DNA of 64,000 nucleotides from Giardia intestinalis (Eukaryota): the NCBI GenBank assembly GCA_000002435.2, contig CM018792.1; one strand, 5' to 3'. Position numbers and translations under genes: made by a program. Under the pieces are notes generated by a model. It ran no database searches and was not told the origin of the DNA. It was given only the letters and a program-made list of their open reading frames with translations. Below, in pieces: positions 16,633-25,209 of the stretch (position 1 is its first letter; each line of letters opens with the position of its first letter).

Positions 16633-18978
16633 ATGATTGCGCAGTGGTTCAATGCCATCTCCGCTGGCGACGTAGACTTCATAGAGAGAAACAGGCGGAT
16701 GATGGTCAAGACCCGTGACCGACAAAGACGGACTGCGTTGATGTGTGCCGTAGAAATGGACAACACCTCTATCGCACAACTTCTTTTGGACGACGAGGCA
16801 AACGAGTGCGATTCTCTGAATCACAATGTTCTGACAGCTATCCTTGCAAGGCCATCGTGTTTTGATGAGGCATTCAAGCTGCAAATGAAAGCTCAAAGAA
16901 CTCTGCCTTGCTCGTCCACGCCAAGTTACGAAATGATCAAGCTCCTAGCATCTCGTCTAGCAATGTGTCCTGACCTATCGGGGGTCCTGCCGATTGTGTA
17001 CGCCATTGAGAACAAACATATAGAATATCTCCCCGCGCTTATAGAGCCTACTCGTCGGTTCCTCATGAAACACAGCGAGCAGCTTAGTGTATTAGTACCA
17101 GGATACACGGGGCTTATGCTGGGCTGCATTCTTGGTGACATCAATCTCTGCAATCGGCATTGCCACCAAGTGCGATCTACTAACTTGGCCGGACAGACAG
17201 CCCTAATGATTAGTGCCATGCTTGGCTTCCATCAAGGTATAGGCTTTCTTTTACAGCATGAGATGAGAATGCGTGACAAGTATGGGTTCACTGCTCTGAT
17301 GTACTCCGCGATGATAGGGGATACAGACTCAATACGTACGCTTGGCCCACAGGAAGGTGATATCGTTTCCTCGACTGGATGCACAACGTCCATGATCGCC
17401 GCATATCACGGGCATGTCAGCGTTGTCTCTGGTCTGCGGAACATAGGGCAATATCAGCGACGCACGGATAACGAAGGTCGATCTCTGCTTATGTACGCTA
17501 TGTTTGGAGTGCCCCCGCAACATCTTTCTAACATCATCCAAGAATATTGTGGGATGCAGGATAACCAAGGGAAGACAGCCTTAATGTACGCTGCCGAGCG
17601 GGACTATGCTGAGCTTTGCCGTTTTCTTCTGCATTCAGAAGCTGACATTGTTGATACTACGGGGAGATGTGCTCTTTCTTATGCTCTTCGCACTCGCTCC
17701 TTCAACACTGCAAGGGTCATCCTCGGGTATAGGAATCGAGAAGTGGAGGTTGATGACTGGTCTCCTCTTATGCTTTGGGTGCTTAGAGGCAATAGAGGAG
17801 ATGTAGCACCTGATGATGCAGTACTCCAATGCCACCTAGGTAAAGCAACAGCCGAGGGGACCACTGCGCTAATGCTCGCTGCCATGTTTGGACATCTAGA
17901 GGCGGCAAAGCTCCTCCTGAGGGAAGCATGCATGCAGGAGAGTGCTGAGATTGGCGGGAGGTCTGCGCTCATGTATGCTATCCAATTTGGCCATGCAGAT
18001 GTAGCTGCTCTGTTGGTGAGTATAGAGCACTCACTCTTTGACTCGCATGGGCAGACAGCCCTCATGTATACTGTTAGATACAGCATGCCACAAGTGCTCC
18101 AACTCTTGCTGCCGCACGAGCTCCATGGAAGGGATAGCAATGGCATGACGGCACTCATTCATGCAGCAAAGGCAGGTGATCCAAATGCTGTTTCTCTTCT
18201 TCAGGATGAAGCAGGTGATGCCGACAATGAAGGGAGGACAGCACTGATGTACGCCCTTGCATACGATCATCAAGGATGCTACCAGTTCCTTTTTCCGGCC
18301 GAAGGAAATGTTGTTGACAAGTTAGGTCAATCTGCTCTAATTTATTTCAAAAACAAGCGCTTAGTACATTCCCAAATCCATATGATAACCCCTTCCTTCT
18401 CCTCGACTAGTCCTCCGCTTGACGTACATTCCACACCTCCCGTCTTTAAAACAGAGATACGGACCTTTAACAATAAGAAGGGCTCATTCTGTCACTTGAA
18501 TAGCCGTCCAGCTCCCATTTCCTTACCTAACATCGTTGTCCCTCCGATGAACTGCATAACTGATATCCTCAAGATGAACATTTTGGCGGAAACGGCGGAG
18601 CGAAACAGTTTTACGGAGTATCCATGGTCAGGAGCGCGGGCAATCCAGCTTCTATTGTTCCTCATGCAGCTGAAAAGCGTGGCTAATACCAAAGGCGAGG
18701 TTTCCAGTCAAACCCCCAATTCAGAGATGGAAGCAATCGCATCAGAAAATCTCTTTAGCGAGTCACTGACTCAATATCCTATCAAGTCGATAACTCCACA
18801 AGTTCGCCGAAAGAGCAACAAACTGCAGGTTGCGCAAAAGGAGCACGTCCCAAATATAGTGCTCTACCCATGCCAGCACTTTGTCTACACCCCAGTAAGC
18901 CCTGAGCTCCTGGATACACCACTACTTTGTCCAAAATGTCAGGCCCACGTTAAAAGCTACGATTGCTCTTCTAATTAG
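16633..18978 (+). CDS. ankyrin-repeat protein (Giardia protein 21.1-like), 781 aa
   Basis: Begins MIAQWFNAISAGD, the typical 21.1-family N-terminus. More than 15 tandem ~33-aa repeats with the G(R/Q)TALM(Y/L)AA signature (TALMCAV, TALMISA, TALMYSA, TALMYAA, TALMLAA, SALMYAI ...). C-terminal ~200 aa is non-repeat, with a small Cys/His cluster (CQHF...CPKC). Confidence 0.8.
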   Translation: MIAQWFNAISAGDVDFIERNRRMMVKTRDRQRRTALMCAVEMDNTSIAQLLLDDEANECDSLNHNVLTAILARPSCFDEAFKLQMKAQRTLPCSSTPSYEMIKLLASRLAMCPDLSGVLPIVYAIENKHIEYLPALIEPTRRFLMKHSEQLSVLVPGYTGLMLGCILGDINLCNRHCHQVRSTNLAGQTALMISAMLGFHQGIGFLLQHEMRMRDKYGFTALMYSAMIGDTDSIRTLGPQEGDIVSSTGCTTSMIAAYHGHVSVVSGLRNIGQYQRRTDNEGRSLLMYAMFGVPPQHLSNIIQEYCGMQDNQGKTALMYAAERDYAELCRFLLHSEADIVDTTGRCALSYALRTRSFNTARVILGYRNREVEVDDWSPLMLWVLRGNRGDVAPDDAVLQCHLGKATAEGTTALMLAAMFGHLEAAKLLLREACMQESAEIGGRSALMYAIQFGHADVAALLVSIEHSLFDSHGQTALMYTVRYSMPQVLQLLLPHELHGRDSNGMTALIHAAKAGDPNAVSLLQDEAGDADNEGRTALMYALAYDHQGCYQFLFPAEGNVVDKLGQSALIYFKNKRLVHSQIHMITPSFSSTSPPLDVHSTPPVFKTEIRTFNNKKGSFCHLNSRPAPISLPNIVVPPMNCITDILKMNILAETAERNSFTEYPWSGARAIQLLLFLMQLKSVANTKGEVSSQTPNSEMEAIASENLFSESLTQYPIKSITPQVRRKSNKLQVAQKEHVPNIVLYPCQHFVYTPVSPELLDTPLLCPKCQAHVKSYDCSSN

Positions 18979-19022: not shown

Positions 19023-20231
19023 ATGAAATCAGGTTCTGGCCTTCCTCCCTGTCCTTTATTCTTCCAGGATGGCCGCGTGGCAGGGAAATATCTGCGTTAT
19101 ACAGTAGCACCCATTATCCTTGTCGCGGGGGCTCCACTCGTTTTAGTCCGCCTTTTCTTAGCTATTCTGGGATCTATCGTCTTCGTCGCTTTAGCTTTCC
19201 TCGTCAACCTGGGGACTGATGCAGCCAAGCCTCTTCCTCGCGCACGAGACAAGTTCTGTGTTGGGCTCTTTCATTGGTATAGTCTTTACATTTCAGTTGT
19301 TACGGGTTACTTTTACACGGTGAAAAATGAGCAGCTGTCACACCACAAGGATGCACCGGTTGTTGTGGCCAACCATTCTTCGATAATGGACGCCTTCACC
19401 TTTTCGCTCAAATGCTTCGGGCATCCCGTTGGCAAGGAAGGGGTTCTAAACAACTGGGCCATACGGCAGATATTCCTCGCCGCTAGAGTTGTGATTGTTA
19501 GGCGTCCTCCGTCGGCCGAGATGCGTGAGCTACTCCAGCTCTATACGTCCCCGAGTGCCTCCGAAGCTGAGATCATATCCCTCAATCCGCAAGATGAGAA
19601 CATCCCTGCGCGTGATGCGGAGAAGATTGCAAAGTATCAGAAGCTGCTTGAGAGGCGCAAGGCGTTTGGAATCGCTGGTACATCTGAGATCCTGTGGAAC
19701 CGCGTCCACGATAGCGAGAACGAGTGGAAGCAAATCGTCCTATTTCCTGAAGGAACAGTCACTCCAGCCAGTTGTTTTACCAGGTTTAAAACAGGCGCCT
19801 TCCGCCTAAACGTCCCAGTTCAACCAGTGACGGTGCGGTACCGCAGCATCCTATCGACATGTTGGCTTTCAGACAGTGTTCTATTCAATCTGTATAAGAT
19901 TCTTGCCAATCCTGTGACACTCGTTGAAATGGAGTTTCACGAACCAATGTCGCGCGCAAGTGAGGAGACTCCGCGAGCTTTTGCAGATAGGGTTGGCAAA
20001 TATATGGCAGATGCGCTTGGAGCCGTTTATACCAACTATACAAACGATGACATGCTCTATTTCTATGGATACAAGAACATATCTGCATGCACAGAGGATT
20101 GGATCCGCGACTATGGGTGGATGCAACGTCTGACCGACTTTTCTGCACGCTTCGGCATCAACCCTAACTTCGGGATAGACCAGGAATTTGTTGATAAGTG
20201 CTACTTACAGCATCTTAAAGAGAAGAAGTAA
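19023..20231 (+). CDS. membrane-bound glycerolipid/lysophospholipid acyltransferase (PlsC/LPLAT family)
   Basis: N-terminal hydrophobic helices (IILVAGAPLVLVRLFLAILGSIVFVALAFLV). Acyltransferase motif I HX4D as VVANHSSIMDAF. Motif III FPEGT as VLFPEGTVT. 402 aa. Confidence 0.7.
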   Translation: MKSGSGLPPCPLFFQDGRVAGKYLRYTVAPIILVAGAPLVLVRLFLAILGSIVFVALAFLVNLGTDAAKPLPRARDKFCVGLFHWYSLYISVVTGYFYTVKNEQLSHHKDAPVVVANHSSIMDAFTFSLKCFGHPVGKEGVLNNWAIRQIFLAARVVIVRRPPSAEMRELLQLYTSPSASEAEIISLNPQDENIPARDAEKIAKYQKLLERRKAFGIAGTSEILWNRVHDSENEWKQIVLFPEGTVTPASCFTRFKTGAFRLNVPVQPVTVRYRSILSTCWLSDSVLFNLYKILANPVTLVEMEFHEPMSRASEETPRAFADRVGKYMADALGAVYTNYTNDDMLYFYGYKNISACTEDWIRDYGWMQRLTDFSARFGINPNFGIDQEFVDKCYLQHLKEKK

Positions 20232-20253: not shown

Positions 20254-23067
20254 TCACTTCTTAACGACGCGTACCTGAGAGTTCTCCACAGCAGACGATC
20301 CCAGCTCAGGTGCATGGGCTGACACAGGGTAACGAGGGATAACGGTTTCACCCAGAAATGTAACTGTATCAAAGGACGCACGAATCTCTTGGCTAAGCAA
20401 GCCATAGACTGCAGGGCTTGGAATCTTGATGTCCACCTTCACGACCATCTGGTCCCAATCAAGGTCATCTCCGCCTCGCAGGTATGTAACATATCGTATG
20501 GTAGAGTAGTATTTCAAGGCAATCTTGCTGAGCTTTGCAAGGCTGCCATATGTGTCTGCCTGTCTGATCTCAACGCTGAGCATCCTCCCTAGAGCAATGA
20601 GTCCGTAGTTATAGATCTGTCTGACTCTAGTGAGGTCGATATTGCCACCACACAGAACGACAGCTATGTTCTCACGCTCAGCAAGGGTCAGCTTGTCATA
20701 CATCAGGGCCGCAATACCCATTGCTCCGGCGCCCTCGCAGAGCGTCCCTGTCGTGATAAGAGCATGAACAACCGCACTGGCGATCTCGTTCTCAGTCACC
20801 GAAATGAACTCGTCAACGTAGTTCTTGAGGACATCGTTGTGGATTCCTCCAAGAACCTTGACATTGCAGCCATCTGCTATTGTTCCAGCCGTTTTGTCAA
20901 CAGGGACAAGCTGGCCACTCTCTTTGTAGTTGCGGAGAGGAAACACCTTCTCTGCTTGGATCCCTGTGATCTTGATATTTGGATTGACTCTCTTAGCGTA
21001 AAGGGAGATTCCTGAAATCATACCGCCTCCTCCAATATTGACCAGGATGCGGTCAATGGAGGAAACGTGCCCTTGCCCGACCATCTTGTTCATCAGTTCG
21101 TGAGCAATTGTTCCTTGGCCCTCAATGACGTCGAACGAGTTATAGGGCGGGATAAACATCCAGCCGCGCTTCTCACAGAGTTCCTGGGAATACTTGCTTG
21201 CCTCATCGAAGACAGCACCGTGCTTAATCACTTCGGCGTTGTATCGCTTTGTGTTAACCAATTTGACAGTCGGAGCCGTCTCAGGGCAAACTATTGTGCA
21301 GCGAATACCCAACAAGTCACTTGTCTTGCTGACTCCCTGGGCGTGGTTTCCTGCAGAGCATGCCACAACCCCAGAGATCTCAGTATTATTGCTCTCGGCC
21401 CACTCCTTGCTCTTAATGAGCATATTGCTCGCCCCGCGGATCTTAAACGAGCCCGTCTGCTGAACATTTTCAAACTGGAGAATAACGGTGTGGTCAACGC
21501 CTGTCTTCTTCTGCAAAATATTGCTGTACGCCTTGGAGATGATGCAGGGGGTCTCGTGTATGGCTTTAGCTGCCTGAAGCTTGTTGTAAGCAAGCTCAAT
21601 AGTTGCCGGCGTTATCTCATCACACGACTTGATGGGGGAAACATATGTTCTGATGGGCTCGCCACTGGACGAAGCTCCCTCATTGAACTCCTCATAGGAG
21701 ACATCGCGCAGCCCCTCCTCCTTTATATTGTACTTAGGGATCGCCAACCCCAGGATGTTCTCATCACCGAAGACCTCGGACAACTCATTGTACAAAGAAA
21801 CTAAGTGCTGGTAGCCAGGGCCCGAGGCCTTGATAGAGACCTGCTGGTGTTGTATAGTCTTTACGTGAAAGCTAAGAATATTAATCGAGTGCTTGGAGAG
21901 GATATCTGTCAAACGGGTCATGAGATTCCCATCAAGTGTGTTGAGCTTGACAACGAAGTTCATGAGCTCTCCAGACTGGATTAGGGCATGCATCAAGGAG
22001 TATTCAATATTTGATGCAATGTCTATTTCCTCAAGAGAGGCAGAGACCGCCCCTGTGATGAAGCATAGTACGTTTGGTGTCGGGTTAAATCTTCTGAAAC
22101 CGGTCGTTCGCAGAAGCAGGGCTGTGAATGCCTCCACGTGGACATTTGTGCTGATGCAGTGAGTGGTAGACAGGAACTTGTAAAAACCTAGATGAACCAT
22201 GTCCTGGTCAACAAGCGCTGTGCTATATGGGAAGCCGCGAAGCTCTTCCTGGGACACGGAGTTGACGAGCTCGTTGTACTGATTCTCAATGAGTTTCTTG
22301 AAGTACTTAACCGTATCTATCTCATTGTAGAGGGCATCGAACGCGGCTTTGACAATAGGGTGCGTCTCACCAAAGATGCAATTGGCAAAGAACTGCTCGT
22401 GGGTAACACTGTCGCGCACAGTTTGGACCCATACGTGTGGATCCATTGCAGGGATGTGCTTAAGGTGCACGAGAGTGAGATCGCCACTGAATGCGATCTT
22501 CTTGTAATACTCAAGGCAGTACGTTGCAAAGTCGTTTCTGCGATAGAGCATGACGTTCTGAGGGATCACTACTTGGTGAACTATGTCTACCTCGTTGGCC
22601 ATCTGCGCATGCGTTGCATCAAGCATAAGCCATATGGCCTCACGGAAGTGGTCACTTATGTGAACAACCTTTTCCACCACGATATCTGCGACATAGTTGT
22701 CCAGATCAGCTCCGAGCTCGTGACATGCATAGGCGACAAACGCATATGCAAAGTTGGTGAGCAGGCCCGGGGCAAACTGAACACTTATTCTATAGTGAAG
22801 GCTGGCGGCTGCACCAACGAGCGGTATCAGCAAAGGAAAAGCCTTGTAGTTAGTCACCTTGAAACATATGCTCTTACTCTTGTCCCACCCTGTAATCTTT
22901 CCAATTGAGTATGCATAGCAACGATAAGCAATATCCATGTTGCTGCTCATATTCTCCATCTTTAGGTACACTTTGCAGCCCATGTCTCTATCCAGGAGCG
23001 GGAAGTTGTAAACAGGAGGCTCCCCCATGTTGAGGAAAGAGAGGAACTCCTGCATGGTGATAGTCAT
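20254..23067 (-). CDS. threonine/serine dehydratase (PLP-dependent, with C-terminal regulatory domain) carrying a ~480-aa N-terminal extension of unknown function
   Basis: Single 937-aa ORF with ATG at 23065-23067. C-terminal half contains TGSFKIRGA (PLP lysine motif), ACSAGNHAQGV (SAGNHAQG signature of IlvA/TdcB), GGGG(M)ISG glycine loop, and a following ~100-aa tail consistent with a regulatory domain. Alignable by eye to E. coli IlvA over ~430 aa. The N-terminal ~480 aa has no motif I recognise. Confidence 0.75.
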   Translation of the reverse strand: MTITMQEFLSFLNMGEPPVYNFPLLDRDMGCKVYLKMENMSSNMDIAYRCYAYSIGKITGWDKSKSICFKVTNYKAFPLLIPLVGAAASLHYRISVQFAPGLLTNFAYAFVAYACHELGADLDNYVADIVVEKVVHISDHFREAIWLMLDATHAQMANEVDIVHQVVIPQNVMLYRRNDFATYCLEYYKKIAFSGDLTLVHLKHIPAMDPHVWVQTVRDSVTHEQFFANCIFGETHPIVKAAFDALYNEIDTVKYFKKLIENQYNELVNSVSQEELRGFPYSTALVDQDMVHLGFYKFLSTTHCISTNVHVEAFTALLLRTTGFRRFNPTPNVLCFITGAVSASLEEIDIASNIEYSLMHALIQSGELMNFVVKLNTLDGNLMTRLTDILSKHSINILSFHVKTIQHQQVSIKASGPGYQHLVSLYNELSEVFGDENILGLAIPKYNIKEEGLRDVSYEEFNEGASSSGEPIRTYVSPIKSCDEITPATIELAYNKLQAAKAIHETPCIISKAYSNILQKKTGVDHTVILQFENVQQTGSFKIRGASNMLIKSKEWAESNNTEISGVVACSAGNHAQGVSKTSDLLGIRCTIVCPETAPTVKLVNTKRYNAEVIKHGAVFDEASKYSQELCEKRGWMFIPPYNSFDVIEGQGTIAHELMNKMVGQGHVSSIDRILVNIGGGGMISGISLYAKRVNPNIKITGIQAEKVFPLRNYKESGQLVPVDKTAGTIADGCNVKVLGGIHNDVLKNYVDEFISVTENEIASAVVHALITTGTLCEGAGAMGIAALMYDKLTLAERENIAVVLCGGNIDLTRVRQIYNYGLIALGRMLSVEIRQADTYGSLAKLSKIALKYYSTIRYVTYLRGGDDLDWDQMVVKVDIKIPSPAVYGLLSQEIRASFDTVTFLGETVIPRYPVSAHAPELGSSAVENSQVRVVKK

Positions 23068-23343
23068 TAGTTTAAAAATAGCAATCTGAAAATTATTGAC
23101 TGCTTTTTTGAAAATAAGCGTCTAAAGGGCGAGCAGATCGGCGATACAAAGAGCGGTTAAAACACAGCGACGCAGCGACACAGAGAATCCTGTCAAGGAC
23201 AAGGCGGCTCTGCAAGAGCTGTGGAAACCTTCGAGTGCCCCTTCAAATGTATGGGAATAAGTCTGGAAATATGAAAAGTGAAAAGTTGGCCAAAAGCTAC
23301 TGAAAATCCAAAAATCTGCTGCATCTTCGCTGGGTAGAAGTGG

Positions 23344-25209
23344 ATGCAAACAAACCTTTCTCAGTCGTCGAGGGTTAGATTTGCAGAGCAGTACAACGAC
23401 GAGATTGAAGAGTGCAGAGAGGAGAAGCAAATAGAACAAAGTGAGGCCTCACGAGGAACGGAGTCCGAGTCGATCGCAGCTACATTTCGCATCACTGTAG
23501 GAAGAGACACCGAGCCACTGACAGATGACAAACCAGAGAAATCCGAAAACAGCGCGTATGGGAAGCTTTTACGCGCGCTTTGTGACAATGCCCCGCTCTC
23601 TGAGTCTGGACACAGCGCAACCGATCGTGAGTGTGTTTCAACTCTGATCGGTGGGATTATTCCCGAGATAGAAGGAATGGTGTTCGTCAGAACTCTCGAC
23701 GAATTCTTATCCCAGTTTTCGGTCATTGGAGACGCGACTAAGAAGGTGGCTGCGTTAGCATCAGAGATGGAATCTAAGCAAGTACTTATCCCACCTAGCC
23801 CGCTGGAGCTGTTGCACAACATGAATGTCAATTATGAGGAAAATAAGGTCTATGTGAAGCCCTCCAATCTCATGGAAAATTCAGTTATCAACCAGTCAAT
23901 TTCTGTGCTCAACAAGTCTGGCCTTATGGCCCCAAAATCGTCGTCTTCTAAGGGAGATCACGTGCCGAAAGTCAACTTCTTAGCCAGTGCAGATCTTTCC
24001 TGTTACACTAAGATTCTTGCGGACCTTGTCTCCAGGTACGGGTCTCAAACGGGATACAAGCCCATTCTTCCCCCGAGAATGAAGGCTGAGGCCGTTGTGG
24101 AGATGGCAGCCATGATAGAGAAGCTCATTCCCCGCGAAGCCATGGGGATGACCCTCCTGGTCACCGATGTTGAGAAGATGTTCACTACCCTACGCATATT
24201 ACCTCGATATGTTAAGCAAACAGATATCGCACCCCTCTTCAAGAAGGCCGTAGCAGTGCAGCAGAAGGTTCTTCTAGGCTATCCCATATATGCTCCAGAA
24301 AGCAAGATGTTTGCTCTGTACAAGGCCCAAAACATCTCTGAAGGAAGTGCCCGTATGCGCACAGCAATGAACATCACTAGGATATGCTATATAGGCTTTG
24401 TGTACCTACTATACTATCTGGCCGAGGACATATTCAACCGTACGCACAAGCTGAGTAACCGTGCGGACATTTTACAGGGGCAGCTATCGGCCCCGGGGAC
24501 CTATGATGTCCATGAGGCAGCAGAACAGCTTATGTCGAAGCAGCTGAAAGCGAAAAGAAAAGCAATGGCCACTCAGTCAAATGCACCTGACGAGCAAGAC
24601 GGAGCCGCGAGCTTTTCGCACTCTAATACTAGTGAGTTAACCAAGTCATCTCGGTGCGACGTAGAAGACATAGAACATCCCTACGAGCGGTTCAGAGCCC
24701 CAGACAACATTGTTGAGCTAGAGGTCTTTAGACCAGCGGCCTATCTTTGGCGCTGCATTTATATCTTCGCAAGTCTGCTGGACAGAGAGCTCTCCTCTCC
24801 AGATATTGGCTTTGGCCTGGCAATACCTCGTCCTCGCTTGACTCCAAACCTCCGCGAATATCCAGAGTGCATTCGCGTGATGACCCGGCACGTTCCCATC
24901 ATAAAGAAAGCATACACCAACTACTGTCTCAACAGCCCTGTTCTCAGCTGCCAAGGTCTCTTACAGCTTTTAAAGTGTGCCAAGATCAACCACATCATCA
25001 CTTATAAATTTGCGTTTGAAGTGGTGATGCGGAACTACTCCAAAATTGACAAAGAGACATATATCCCTGGCTTGACTATAGAGGAGTTCCTGGTTGCCCT
25101 TTTTGTCTGTGCGAACTATGCATACTCTAAAGAGCCTATTGTCCAGACTCTTCAGACTCCGGAAATGCGCGTGGAGCACCTTATCCTGCAACTCTCTGGG
25201 AAAAGCTAA
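23344..25209 (+). CDS. hypothetical protein, 621 aa
   Basis: Long ORF with ATG start, Giardia-like codon usage. No recognisable motif. Acidic N-terminus. Confidence 0.45.
   Translation: MQTNLSQSSRVRFAEQYNDEIEECREEKQIEQSEASRGTESESIAATFRITVGRDTEPLTDDKPEKSENSAYGKLLRALCDNAPLSESGHSATDRECVSTLIGGIIPEIEGMVFVRTLDEFLSQFSVIGDATKKVAALASEMESKQVLIPPSPLELLHNMNVNYEENKVYVKPSNLMENSVINQSISVLNKSGLMAPKSSSSKGDHVPKVNFLASADLSCYTKILADLVSRYGSQTGYKPILPPRMKAEAVVEMAAMIEKLIPREAMGMTLLVTDVEKMFTTLRILPRYVKQTDIAPLFKKAVAVQQKVLLGYPIYAPESKMFALYKAQNISEGSARMRTAMNITRICYIGFVYLLYYLAEDIFNRTHKLSNRADILQGQLSAPGTYDVHEAAEQLMSKQLKAKRKAMATQSNAPDEQDGAASFSHSNTSELTKSSRCDVEDIEHPYERFRAPDNIVELEVFRPAAYLWRCIYIFASLLDRELSSPDIGFGLAIPRPRLTPNLREYPECIRVMTRHVPIIKKAYTNYCLNSPVLSCQGLLQLLKCAKINHIITYKFAFEVVMRNYSKIDKETYIPGLTIEEFLVALFVCANYAYSKEPIVQTLQTPEMRVEHLILQLSGKS

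Follow-up and report, generated by a model that had tools for sequence, protein, structure and literature searches.

The 64,000-nucleotide stretch of the Giardia intestinalis genome analysed here (contig CM018792.1 of assembly GCA_000002435.2, hereafter the window) encodes a threonine dehydratase that is probably a dead-plus-live tandem, in which a catalytically dead copy of the dehydratase module precedes a live one and serves as its partner subunit. The gene lies on the minus strand at 20254..23067, where a complete open reading frame (ORF) of 937 amino acids (aa) plus stop runs uninterrupted from the ATG at 23067; features of this gene are given below on the same strand. The product matches XP_001707324, annotated as the threonine dehydratase of Giardia duodenalis, at 100% identity. 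A previous interpretation made from the DNA letters alone (the sequence-only reading) had described an enzyme of this type fused behind a 480-aa domain of unknown function, and most of what follows concerns the identity of that N-terminal half.

The C-terminal half is the better defined of the two. The sequence-only reading had taken the last ~450 aa for a threonine dehydratase catalytic plus regulatory module, and this was borne out by the PALP family, by TIGR01127 and by the catalytic motifs. In a Pfam scan, PALP (PF00291), the family it had proposed for checking, matched aa 502-807 (20647..21564) at E = 3.4e-67 with 227.3 bits against a cut-off of 35, and the closest solved structure to this catalytic domain, dependent on pyridoxal 5'-phosphate (PLP), was the catabolic enzyme TdcB (2gn0, E = 7e-64). 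The motifs GSFKIRGA, SAGNHAQG (571-578) and GGGG (679-682) are all present; Lys542 in the first of these (GSFK542IRG; codon at 21442..21444) is the predicted PLP Schiff-base lysine, in a column kept in 97% of dehydratase modules. Among 58 dehydratase modules, the Giardia C-terminal half itself included, 95 columns are conserved in at least 90% of members, and this half retains 76 of them. The NCBIfam model TIGR01127 (threonine ammonia-lyase with one C-terminal regulatory domain) aligned to aa 513-892 over positions 4-368 of 380 at E = 5e-91, with a whole-protein score of 305.5 bits that falls under the curated equivalog cut-off of 378.75; the protein is therefore a divergent member, and its naming rests on motifs and best matches.

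Downstream of the catalytic domain, a single ACT-like regulatory domain is predicted at aa ~826-900 (20368..20592), as the TIGR01127 match extends to aa 892 and aligned homologs carry PF01842/PF13291, with no ACT domain detected in the Giardia protein by Pfam scan. Thr_dehydrat_C (PF00585), which the sequence-only reading had put forward for the regulatory tail, gave no match at E <= 1, whether the full protein or each half was scanned, indicating that the tail is of the single-ACT type and not that of Escherichia coli IlvA. The remaining C-terminal tail, aa 901-937 (20257..20367), is poorly conserved, at 76-89% identity among Giardia lineages. Residues 502-900 make up a complete, active-looking one-ACT threonine dehydratase. 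Bacterial relatives of this module are 398-432 aa long, which agrees with the earlier remark that 937 aa is an unusual length. Codon 739 (20851-20853) specifies leucine here (Leu739, in CNVKVLGG) and proline in every other Giardia variant examined; the 'L739P' change reported from a metronidazole-resistant line (PMC5355454) corresponds to the common allele of all other Giardia isolates examined.

Single-sequence searches left the N-terminal half blank. There was no significant match to aa 1-480 in Pfam, NCBIfam or PDB sequence searches, and phmmer, run exhaustively against 1.84 billion cluster representatives, gave 0 matches; as it also failed to return the query's own protein, this result cannot show absence elsewhere, and the cluster representative apparently lacks the N-terminal half or is missing from the set. 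Faint Pfam matches to ADDT and aGPT-Pplase3 (E = 0.03-0.3) were dismissed as noise, and a BLASTP match between the two halves (E = 0.006), the only one obtained, was out of register and was not used. By eye, aa 20-50 ('FPLLDRDMGCKVYLKMENMSSNMDIAYRCY') look like the first strand and lysine motif of a dehydratase. The statement in the sequence-only reading that this half resembles nothing recognizable accordingly stands for single-sequence comparison and falls for profile comparison, where the half was found to be, very probably, a diverged copy of the module that follows it.

Profile-profile comparison with hhalign used an alignment of three Giardia N-terminal halves (A2) against one of 60 one-ACT dehydratases (A1). 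Residues 299-432, which take in the last part of the PLP fold together with the neck and the ACT domain, aligned to module positions 290-418 with a probability of 81% and E = 1.2e-5, and at a lower alignment threshold the match was colinear from end to end (1-463 versus 3-449), with probability rising to 85% and E = 5.7e-6. The real score of 50.3 compares with 16.8 +/- 3.0 (maximum 32.3) for 120 full shuffles, a maximum of 22.2 for 120 block shuffles and 16.0 for the reversed sequence. Once the stronger C-terminal segment was taken out, an in-register match persisted between aa 17-61 and profile positions 26-76, scoring 31-33 against shuffle maxima of 19-26, and residues 1-70 by themselves also placed the lysine-motif strand correctly (score 31.2; shuffle maximum 19.1). 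From these comparisons and their shuffle controls, and from the orthologous protein described below, a degenerate PLP-fold (fold type II) domain is predicted at aa ~15-355 (22003..23025), confidently alignable at aa 17-61 and 299-355 and diverged beyond recognition in its middle, small-domain part. An ACT-like domain with a beta-alpha-beta-beta-alpha order is tentatively predicted to follow at aa ~365-435 (21763..21975), from the hhalign segment, from a fitting secondary structure in both AlphaFold models described below, from a predicted local distance difference test (pLDDT) score of 79-93 in the second model and from a faint Pfam match to ACT_AHAS_ss (E = 0.095). An inter-module linker at aa ~441-500 (21568..21747), of lower conservation and with pLDDT about 30, would join the two modules.

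The same two-module layout was found in a second lineage. Among the matches listed, the closest relatives of the C-terminal half were fragments on JGI contigs at 47-49% identity. One of these, P0002, runs off its contig upstream of the module, and a metagenome scan with its upstream piece led to L008 (JGI contig Ga0352984_1046320, 3,498 bases), which carries both halves in a single complete ORF of 1,104 aa on a single contig. This is the sole full-length homolog found outside Giardia, and it speaks for the fusion and against the halves being independent genes in orthologs, the outcome that the sequence-only reading had named as damaging. The C-terminal half of L008 is 48% identical to that of Giardia, and its aa 28-151 align with Giardia aa 16-128 at E = 2e-6. 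Its N-terminal half is ~125 aa longer than the Giardia counterpart and less degraded, keeping 33 of the 95 conserved columns against 20 in Giardia; it matched Pfam PALP (aa 27-165 on model 6-125) at E = 8.5e-7 and 29 bits, under the 35-bit cut-off, and contains 'IIAGGLIDAH', similar to the dehydratase motif 'LCGGNIDL'.

Compared on their own, the N-terminal halves of Giardia and the sister lineage gave a significant hhalign match only at aa 16-80 (E = 2e-5), and homology between them beyond that stretch rests on MAFFT blocks and on the score gained by combining the profiles. That gain was substantial: scores of 50.3 and 47.1 for the separate lineages rose to 87.8 on merging, with a probability of 97.1% and E = 5.5e-11 over 358 columns (15-432 versus module positions 24-418), whilst 100 column shuffles of the two-lineage profile gave 15.9 +/- 2.9 with a maximum of 27.7. 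MAFFT, run independently, put YLK.EN, the VVIP strand, the EGAGA helix, GGNID and the ACT elements into the same columns. On these profile data we regard homology of the whole N-terminal half to the PLP-fold plus ACT dehydratase module as established with high confidence.

Additional contigs belong to these relatives. L010 (ENA UOJE01013642, from a human gut metagenome; 3,321 bases, GC 63%) encodes the C-terminal module of this same non-Giardia lineage, with 87% identity to P0002 where the two match, and downstream of it lies a gene for a eukaryote-type RNA cap guanine-N2 methyltransferase (PF09445, E = 1e-11). This gene content indicates that the closest relatives of the Giardia enzyme include a eukaryote found in a human gut sample. 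Among the matches listed, none was an NCBI or EukProt protein of the L008/L010 lineage. A second group of relatives, L005 and L006, is 44-45% identical, and its contigs end close to the start of the module. Upstream of 'MSDITPETI' in L006 (1-340), 38 codons remain in open frame before an intron or an indel interrupts it, and 'KKYSPYVP' within this stretch resembles the linker ends 'KKFVPEL' of L008 and 'RTYVSPI' of Giardia. This group (L005, 1-30, and L006) may extend upstream as well.

The N-terminal module has lost the residues on which catalysis in this family depends. A joint alignment pairs Lys542 with Ala47 (codon at 22927..22929), the sequence reading 'MDIAYR' in place of 'GSFKIRG', and the corresponding residues read D[IV]A across the Giardia variants; L008 and P0137 both have DVA. 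The counterpart of SAGNHAQG is a gap in MAFFT or a non-matching AASLH in hhalign, this region being the most degraded part of the module, and the glycine-rich phosphate loop GGGG is replaced by AFSG. What survives is the strand and helix at the N-terminus, the C-terminal portion of the PLP fold and the ACT-like domain, and the motif residues kept among the 20 of 95 conserved columns are K36, E38, N39, R49 and G339. Given the loss of the lysine, the SAGNH motif and the phosphate loop, the module should not form the covalent bond to PLP that catalysis requires, and as a family homolog lacking these features it is classed here as a pseudoenzyme module. We are accordingly confident in reading the N-terminal half as a degenerate and apparently catalytically dead duplicate. 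The two-module architecture and the Lys-to-Ala change are common to Giardia, L008 and the relatives P0002 and P0136-P0138, so the fusion would seem to have arisen once and to have been kept thereafter.

Loss of catalytic residues has not been accompanied by relaxed conservation. We compared assemblage A with assemblage B, assemblage E and the most divergent variant, P0134, respectively. Identity across the N-terminal module (aa 5-440) was 94.5, 97.7 and 91.5%, close to that of the catalytic module (aa 501-900; 97.0, 99.0 and 96.0%), with the linker (aa 441-500) at 85, 95 and 78% and the C-terminal tail (aa 901-937) at 76, 89 and 78%. The genome-wide amino-acid identity between assemblages A and B is 78% (PMC2723961). 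By this comparison the N-terminal module appears strongly constrained and under selection.

How a dead module might earn such constraint is suggested by the way related enzymes assemble. In the one-ACT IlvA of Staphylococcus aureus, the ACT domains of two protomers pair and mimic the two-ACT unit of E. coli IlvA; in the latter, isoleucine is bound at the ACT1/ACT2 interface and regulation crosses protomer interfaces (PMC12224302), and activity depends on subunit contacts (PMC13476584). Since dehydratases work as dimers or larger oligomers and a single ACT domain must pair with that of another protomer, the dead module is most likely a built-in partner. In our reading of the sequence, an ancestral one-ACT threonine dehydratase gene of ~400 aa underwent a head-to-tail duplication and its two copies became fused. 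One copy, the C-terminal (aa ~481-900), retained all the catalytic features and is the predicted enzyme, converting threonine, and probably serine, to 2-oxobutyrate or pyruvate plus ammonia; the other, the N-terminal (aa ~15-435), preserved the general arrangement of the module along with parts of its large PLP-fold domain and its ACT domain. The N-terminal module would most likely fold back upon its live neighbour and act as a partner subunit covalently linked to it, supplying a dimer interface and a second ACT domain so that the ACT domains of both modules could pair. The outcome would be an intramolecular pseudo-dimer with one active site per chain, stabilized and perhaps allosterically regulated by its inactive half. 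Taken alone, this partner-subunit mechanism, drawn by analogy, is one that we favour slightly. A regulatory or scaffolding role, which the sequence-only reading had raised for the extra domain, remains the best reading of the sequence, and its description as a domain of unknown kind is superseded.

Several observations weigh against this account. The middle ~240 residues of the N-terminal half (61-298) have no detectable similarity on their own and could have another structure or function. Direct BLASTP comparison of the two halves yielded no significant match in register, and when a HMMER profile of the N-terminal halves was searched against the PDB, the first match, L-serine ammonia-lyase at E = 0.14, was no more than suggestive and was followed by calaxin and an EF-hand protein. 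AlphaFold prediction of the N-terminal half from three Giardia sequences gave a model with pLDDT 35, which is unusable, its secondary structure reading as strands at 369-374, 396-403 and 409-415 and helices at 380-392 and 419-433. When the input alignment combined N-terminal halves with dehydratases (A3), the predicted template modelling score (pTM) was 0.62, the ACT region (aa 361-440) reached pLDDT 79-93 and the PLP-fold core was partly well predicted, with pLDDT remaining below 50 at aa 61-137, 172-196 and 224-270. A Foldseek search with the A3 model returned regulated threonine deaminases first (1tdj, 8y1j, 9d2q); as that alignment contains dehydratases, the dehydratase-like fold serves to check consistency and does not count as independent support. 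A given protomer in the S. aureus IlvA model has one protomer as its catalytic partner and a different one as its ACT partner (PMC12224302), such that one intramolecular partner may not satisfy both interfaces. The fold-back pseudo-dimer is itself inferred from sequence and analogy.

The principal alternative is a sensor function newly taken on by the dead module, whose vestigial active-site cleft or ACT domain would bind a metabolite or ion and signal to the live module, with any structural partnership secondary. In its fullest form, the N-terminal half would be an evolved allosteric sensor gating threonine catabolism and the supply of 2-oxobutyrate to PFOR-2, responding to a metabolite in Giardia and to Ca2+ in the EF-hand-bearing sister lineage, and the fused gene may have moved laterally between unrelated anaerobic or gut eukaryotes. 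The near-equal conservation of the two modules, beyond what a simple spacer would need, is compatible with this, and ACT domains are ligand-binding modules, with isoleucine sitting at ACT-ACT interfaces; the one-ACT S. aureus IlvA, on the other hand, does not bind isoleucine at all (PMC12224302). An EF-hand-like loop, DADSNGVLTASE, is inserted in the N-terminal module of L008 (L008:1025-1099, aa 288-312) and offers a hint of ion sensing, but its Pfam matches (EF-hand_6 at E = 0.009-0.013, EF-hand_1 up to E 0.1) are below threshold, the loop is absent from Giardia, and no ligand-binding residues are identifiable in the N-terminal module. Two of the three non-synonymous changes reported in metronidazole-resistant lines lie in the N-terminal half (PMC5355454), namely N12D and D348H, which map to N13 and D349 of the ORF, both in the N-terminal module; these substitutions are few, however, and their numbering is off by one relative to the 937-aa ORF. 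We therefore consider a sensor role possible but unlikely as the principal function.

That the N-terminal 480 aa form an unrelated domain, of novel fold and function, is what the blank single-sequence searches of Pfam, NCBIfam, PDB and the 1.84 billion representatives would suggest, as would a central 240-residue stretch similar to nothing detectable. Two separate segments nevertheless match the dehydratase profile colinearly and far above shuffles, the family profile is significant over its 358 columns, and the N-terminal half of L008 matches Pfam PALP, which together make such a domain highly improbable. Catalysis by both modules, with the N-terminal one performing other PLP chemistry or a cofactor-independent reaction, could draw on the strong conservation of that module and on its retained K36, E38, N39, R49 and G339, but with alanine at the Schiff-base position in both lineages, SAGNH and GGGG gone and 20 of 95 columns kept, the second catalytic module floated in the sequence-only reading is effectively excluded.

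An error in the gene model, with the N-terminal half a decaying remnant or a separate gene and the dehydratase made from an internal start, finds a foothold in an early GenBank entry, AAM94634, a 579-aa partial product only, whose first residue is M359. Against this, the identical 937-aa product is on record on 30 contigs, of which the 23 read were all Logan assemblies from separate sequencing runs, ruling out a sequencing artefact. The assemblage B and E orthologs are likewise 937 aa, shorter cluster members of 933 and 909 aa differ only in where the start codon was called on an unchanged sequence, and no stop or frameshift was present in the ORF in any Giardia lineage examined. There is no methionine between residues 383 and 549, and M549 sits downstream of K542, so an active product must begin at or before M383, inside the N-terminal module. 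The conservation of that module (91.5-97.7% against a genome average of 78%) and the occurrence of the same fusion on a single 3.5-kb contig of another eukaryote argue in the same direction, and an artefact of this kind is barely credible. The sequence-only reading had claimed an uninterrupted frame reaching ~1.45 kb upstream of the dehydratase region to the ATG at 23067, and had specified a separating stop or transcript start as grounds for rejection; the ORF listing agrees with that claim, and there is neither a stop codon nor a usable internal start.

The gene is catalogued as GL_12108 (PMC5355454) or GL50803_12108 (PMC8866875), an identifier tied here to the 937-aa ORF by the protein name and the L739 residue, and GL50803_12108 has been detected as RNA and as protein (PMC8866875). 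The recurrence of the 937-aa product and the close packing of its neighbours show that the ORF is real and that the gene is an ordinary, compactly packed Giardia gene. On the plus strand at 19023-20231, a 402-aa acyltransferase (Pfam PF01553, E = 2e-12) is convergent with the dehydratase gene, the two stop codons lying 22 bases apart, and it is preceded at 16633-18978 (+) by an ankyrin-repeat protein of 781 aa (Ank_2, E = 3e-64), whose C-terminal third is free of repeats and ends in a Cys-containing motif, CPKCQAH. On the other side, a divergent 621-aa ORF at 23344-25209 (+), with no Pfam match at E <= 0.01, is separated from the dehydratase gene by a 276-base intergenic region. An AT-rich stretch, tatttttaaacta, lies directly 5' of the ATG at 23068..23080 on the minus strand, and any function we assign to it is presumed from general knowledge of Giardia promoters. 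Two antisense ORFs wholly within the dehydratase gene, at 21067-21804 (+; 245 aa) and 22192-22908 (+; 238 aa), are most likely non-coding shadows of the real frame.

In the Giardia literature the gene is treated simply as a threonine dehydratase and as a lateral-transfer candidate absent from Giardia muris (PMC5355454, PMC7641422, PMC8866875; the absence is recorded in PMC7641422 Table 4), which leaves no G. muris ortholog for the comparison that the sequence-only reading had proposed. A catabolic, energy-yielding role has been proposed, with 2-oxobutyrate passed to PFOR-2, and in metronidazole-resistant lines the gene has repeatedly been found down-regulated and has been reported to carry mutations (PMC5355454, PMC8866875). 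In the searchable literature we found no description of a tandem or pseudoenzyme threonine dehydratase and no biochemical characterization of the Giardia enzyme. The present analysis offers an account of half of an annotated metabolic enzyme that was blank in sequence databases, and contributes a putative fused dead-plus-live case from the PLP fold-type II/ACT family to the few pseudoenzyme partners on record. In view of the proposed PFOR-2 supply role and the changes in metronidazole-resistant lines, a non-catalytic module that is specific to the parasite and strongly conserved could plausibly offer a handle for regulation or drug targeting; were it a sensor, that handle would have no host or bacterial counterpart and might be relevant to metronidazole tolerance. 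An architecture common to Giardia and a eukaryote lineage that has one contig from a human gut metagenome also bears on how this lateral-transfer candidate was acquired.

Set beside characterized members of its family, the Giardia protein combines familiar parts in an unfamiliar order, and a dead-plus-live tandem does not overturn what is known of these enzymes. The one-ACT threonine ammonia-lyases (TIGR01127, 'ilvA_1Cterm'; for example, the ~400-420-aa IlvA of S. aureus and Bacillus subtilis) share the part order of the Giardia C-terminal module, namely a PLP fold with SFK, SAGNHAQG and GGGG, a neck and one ACT domain, at 36-42% identity, and the Giardia N-terminal module is colinear with the same layout. 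These bacterial enzymes have a single module per chain and pair their ACT domains between protomers, whereas the Giardia chain holds two modules, the first of them apparently dead. E. coli IlvA (1TDJ, 9D2Q; PF00585) has a catalytic PLP domain and a regulatory unit of two ACT-like folds, adjacent to each other after the one catalytic domain; in Giardia, by contrast, each ACT domain follows its own PLP-fold domain, although if the two were to pair, each chain would hold two ACT folds, as E. coli IlvA does. TdcB (2GN0), the best solved match to the Giardia catalytic domain, is a single module of ~330 aa without an ACT domain. A functional parallel may lie outside the family, in prozyme systems such as the trypanosomatid S-adenosylmethionine decarboxylase, where a dead paralog is retained, pairs with the live copy and controls its activity. 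There the dead and live copies are separate polypeptides, whereas in Giardia they are fused in one chain, in which the dead module may, by analogy, play a comparable activating role.

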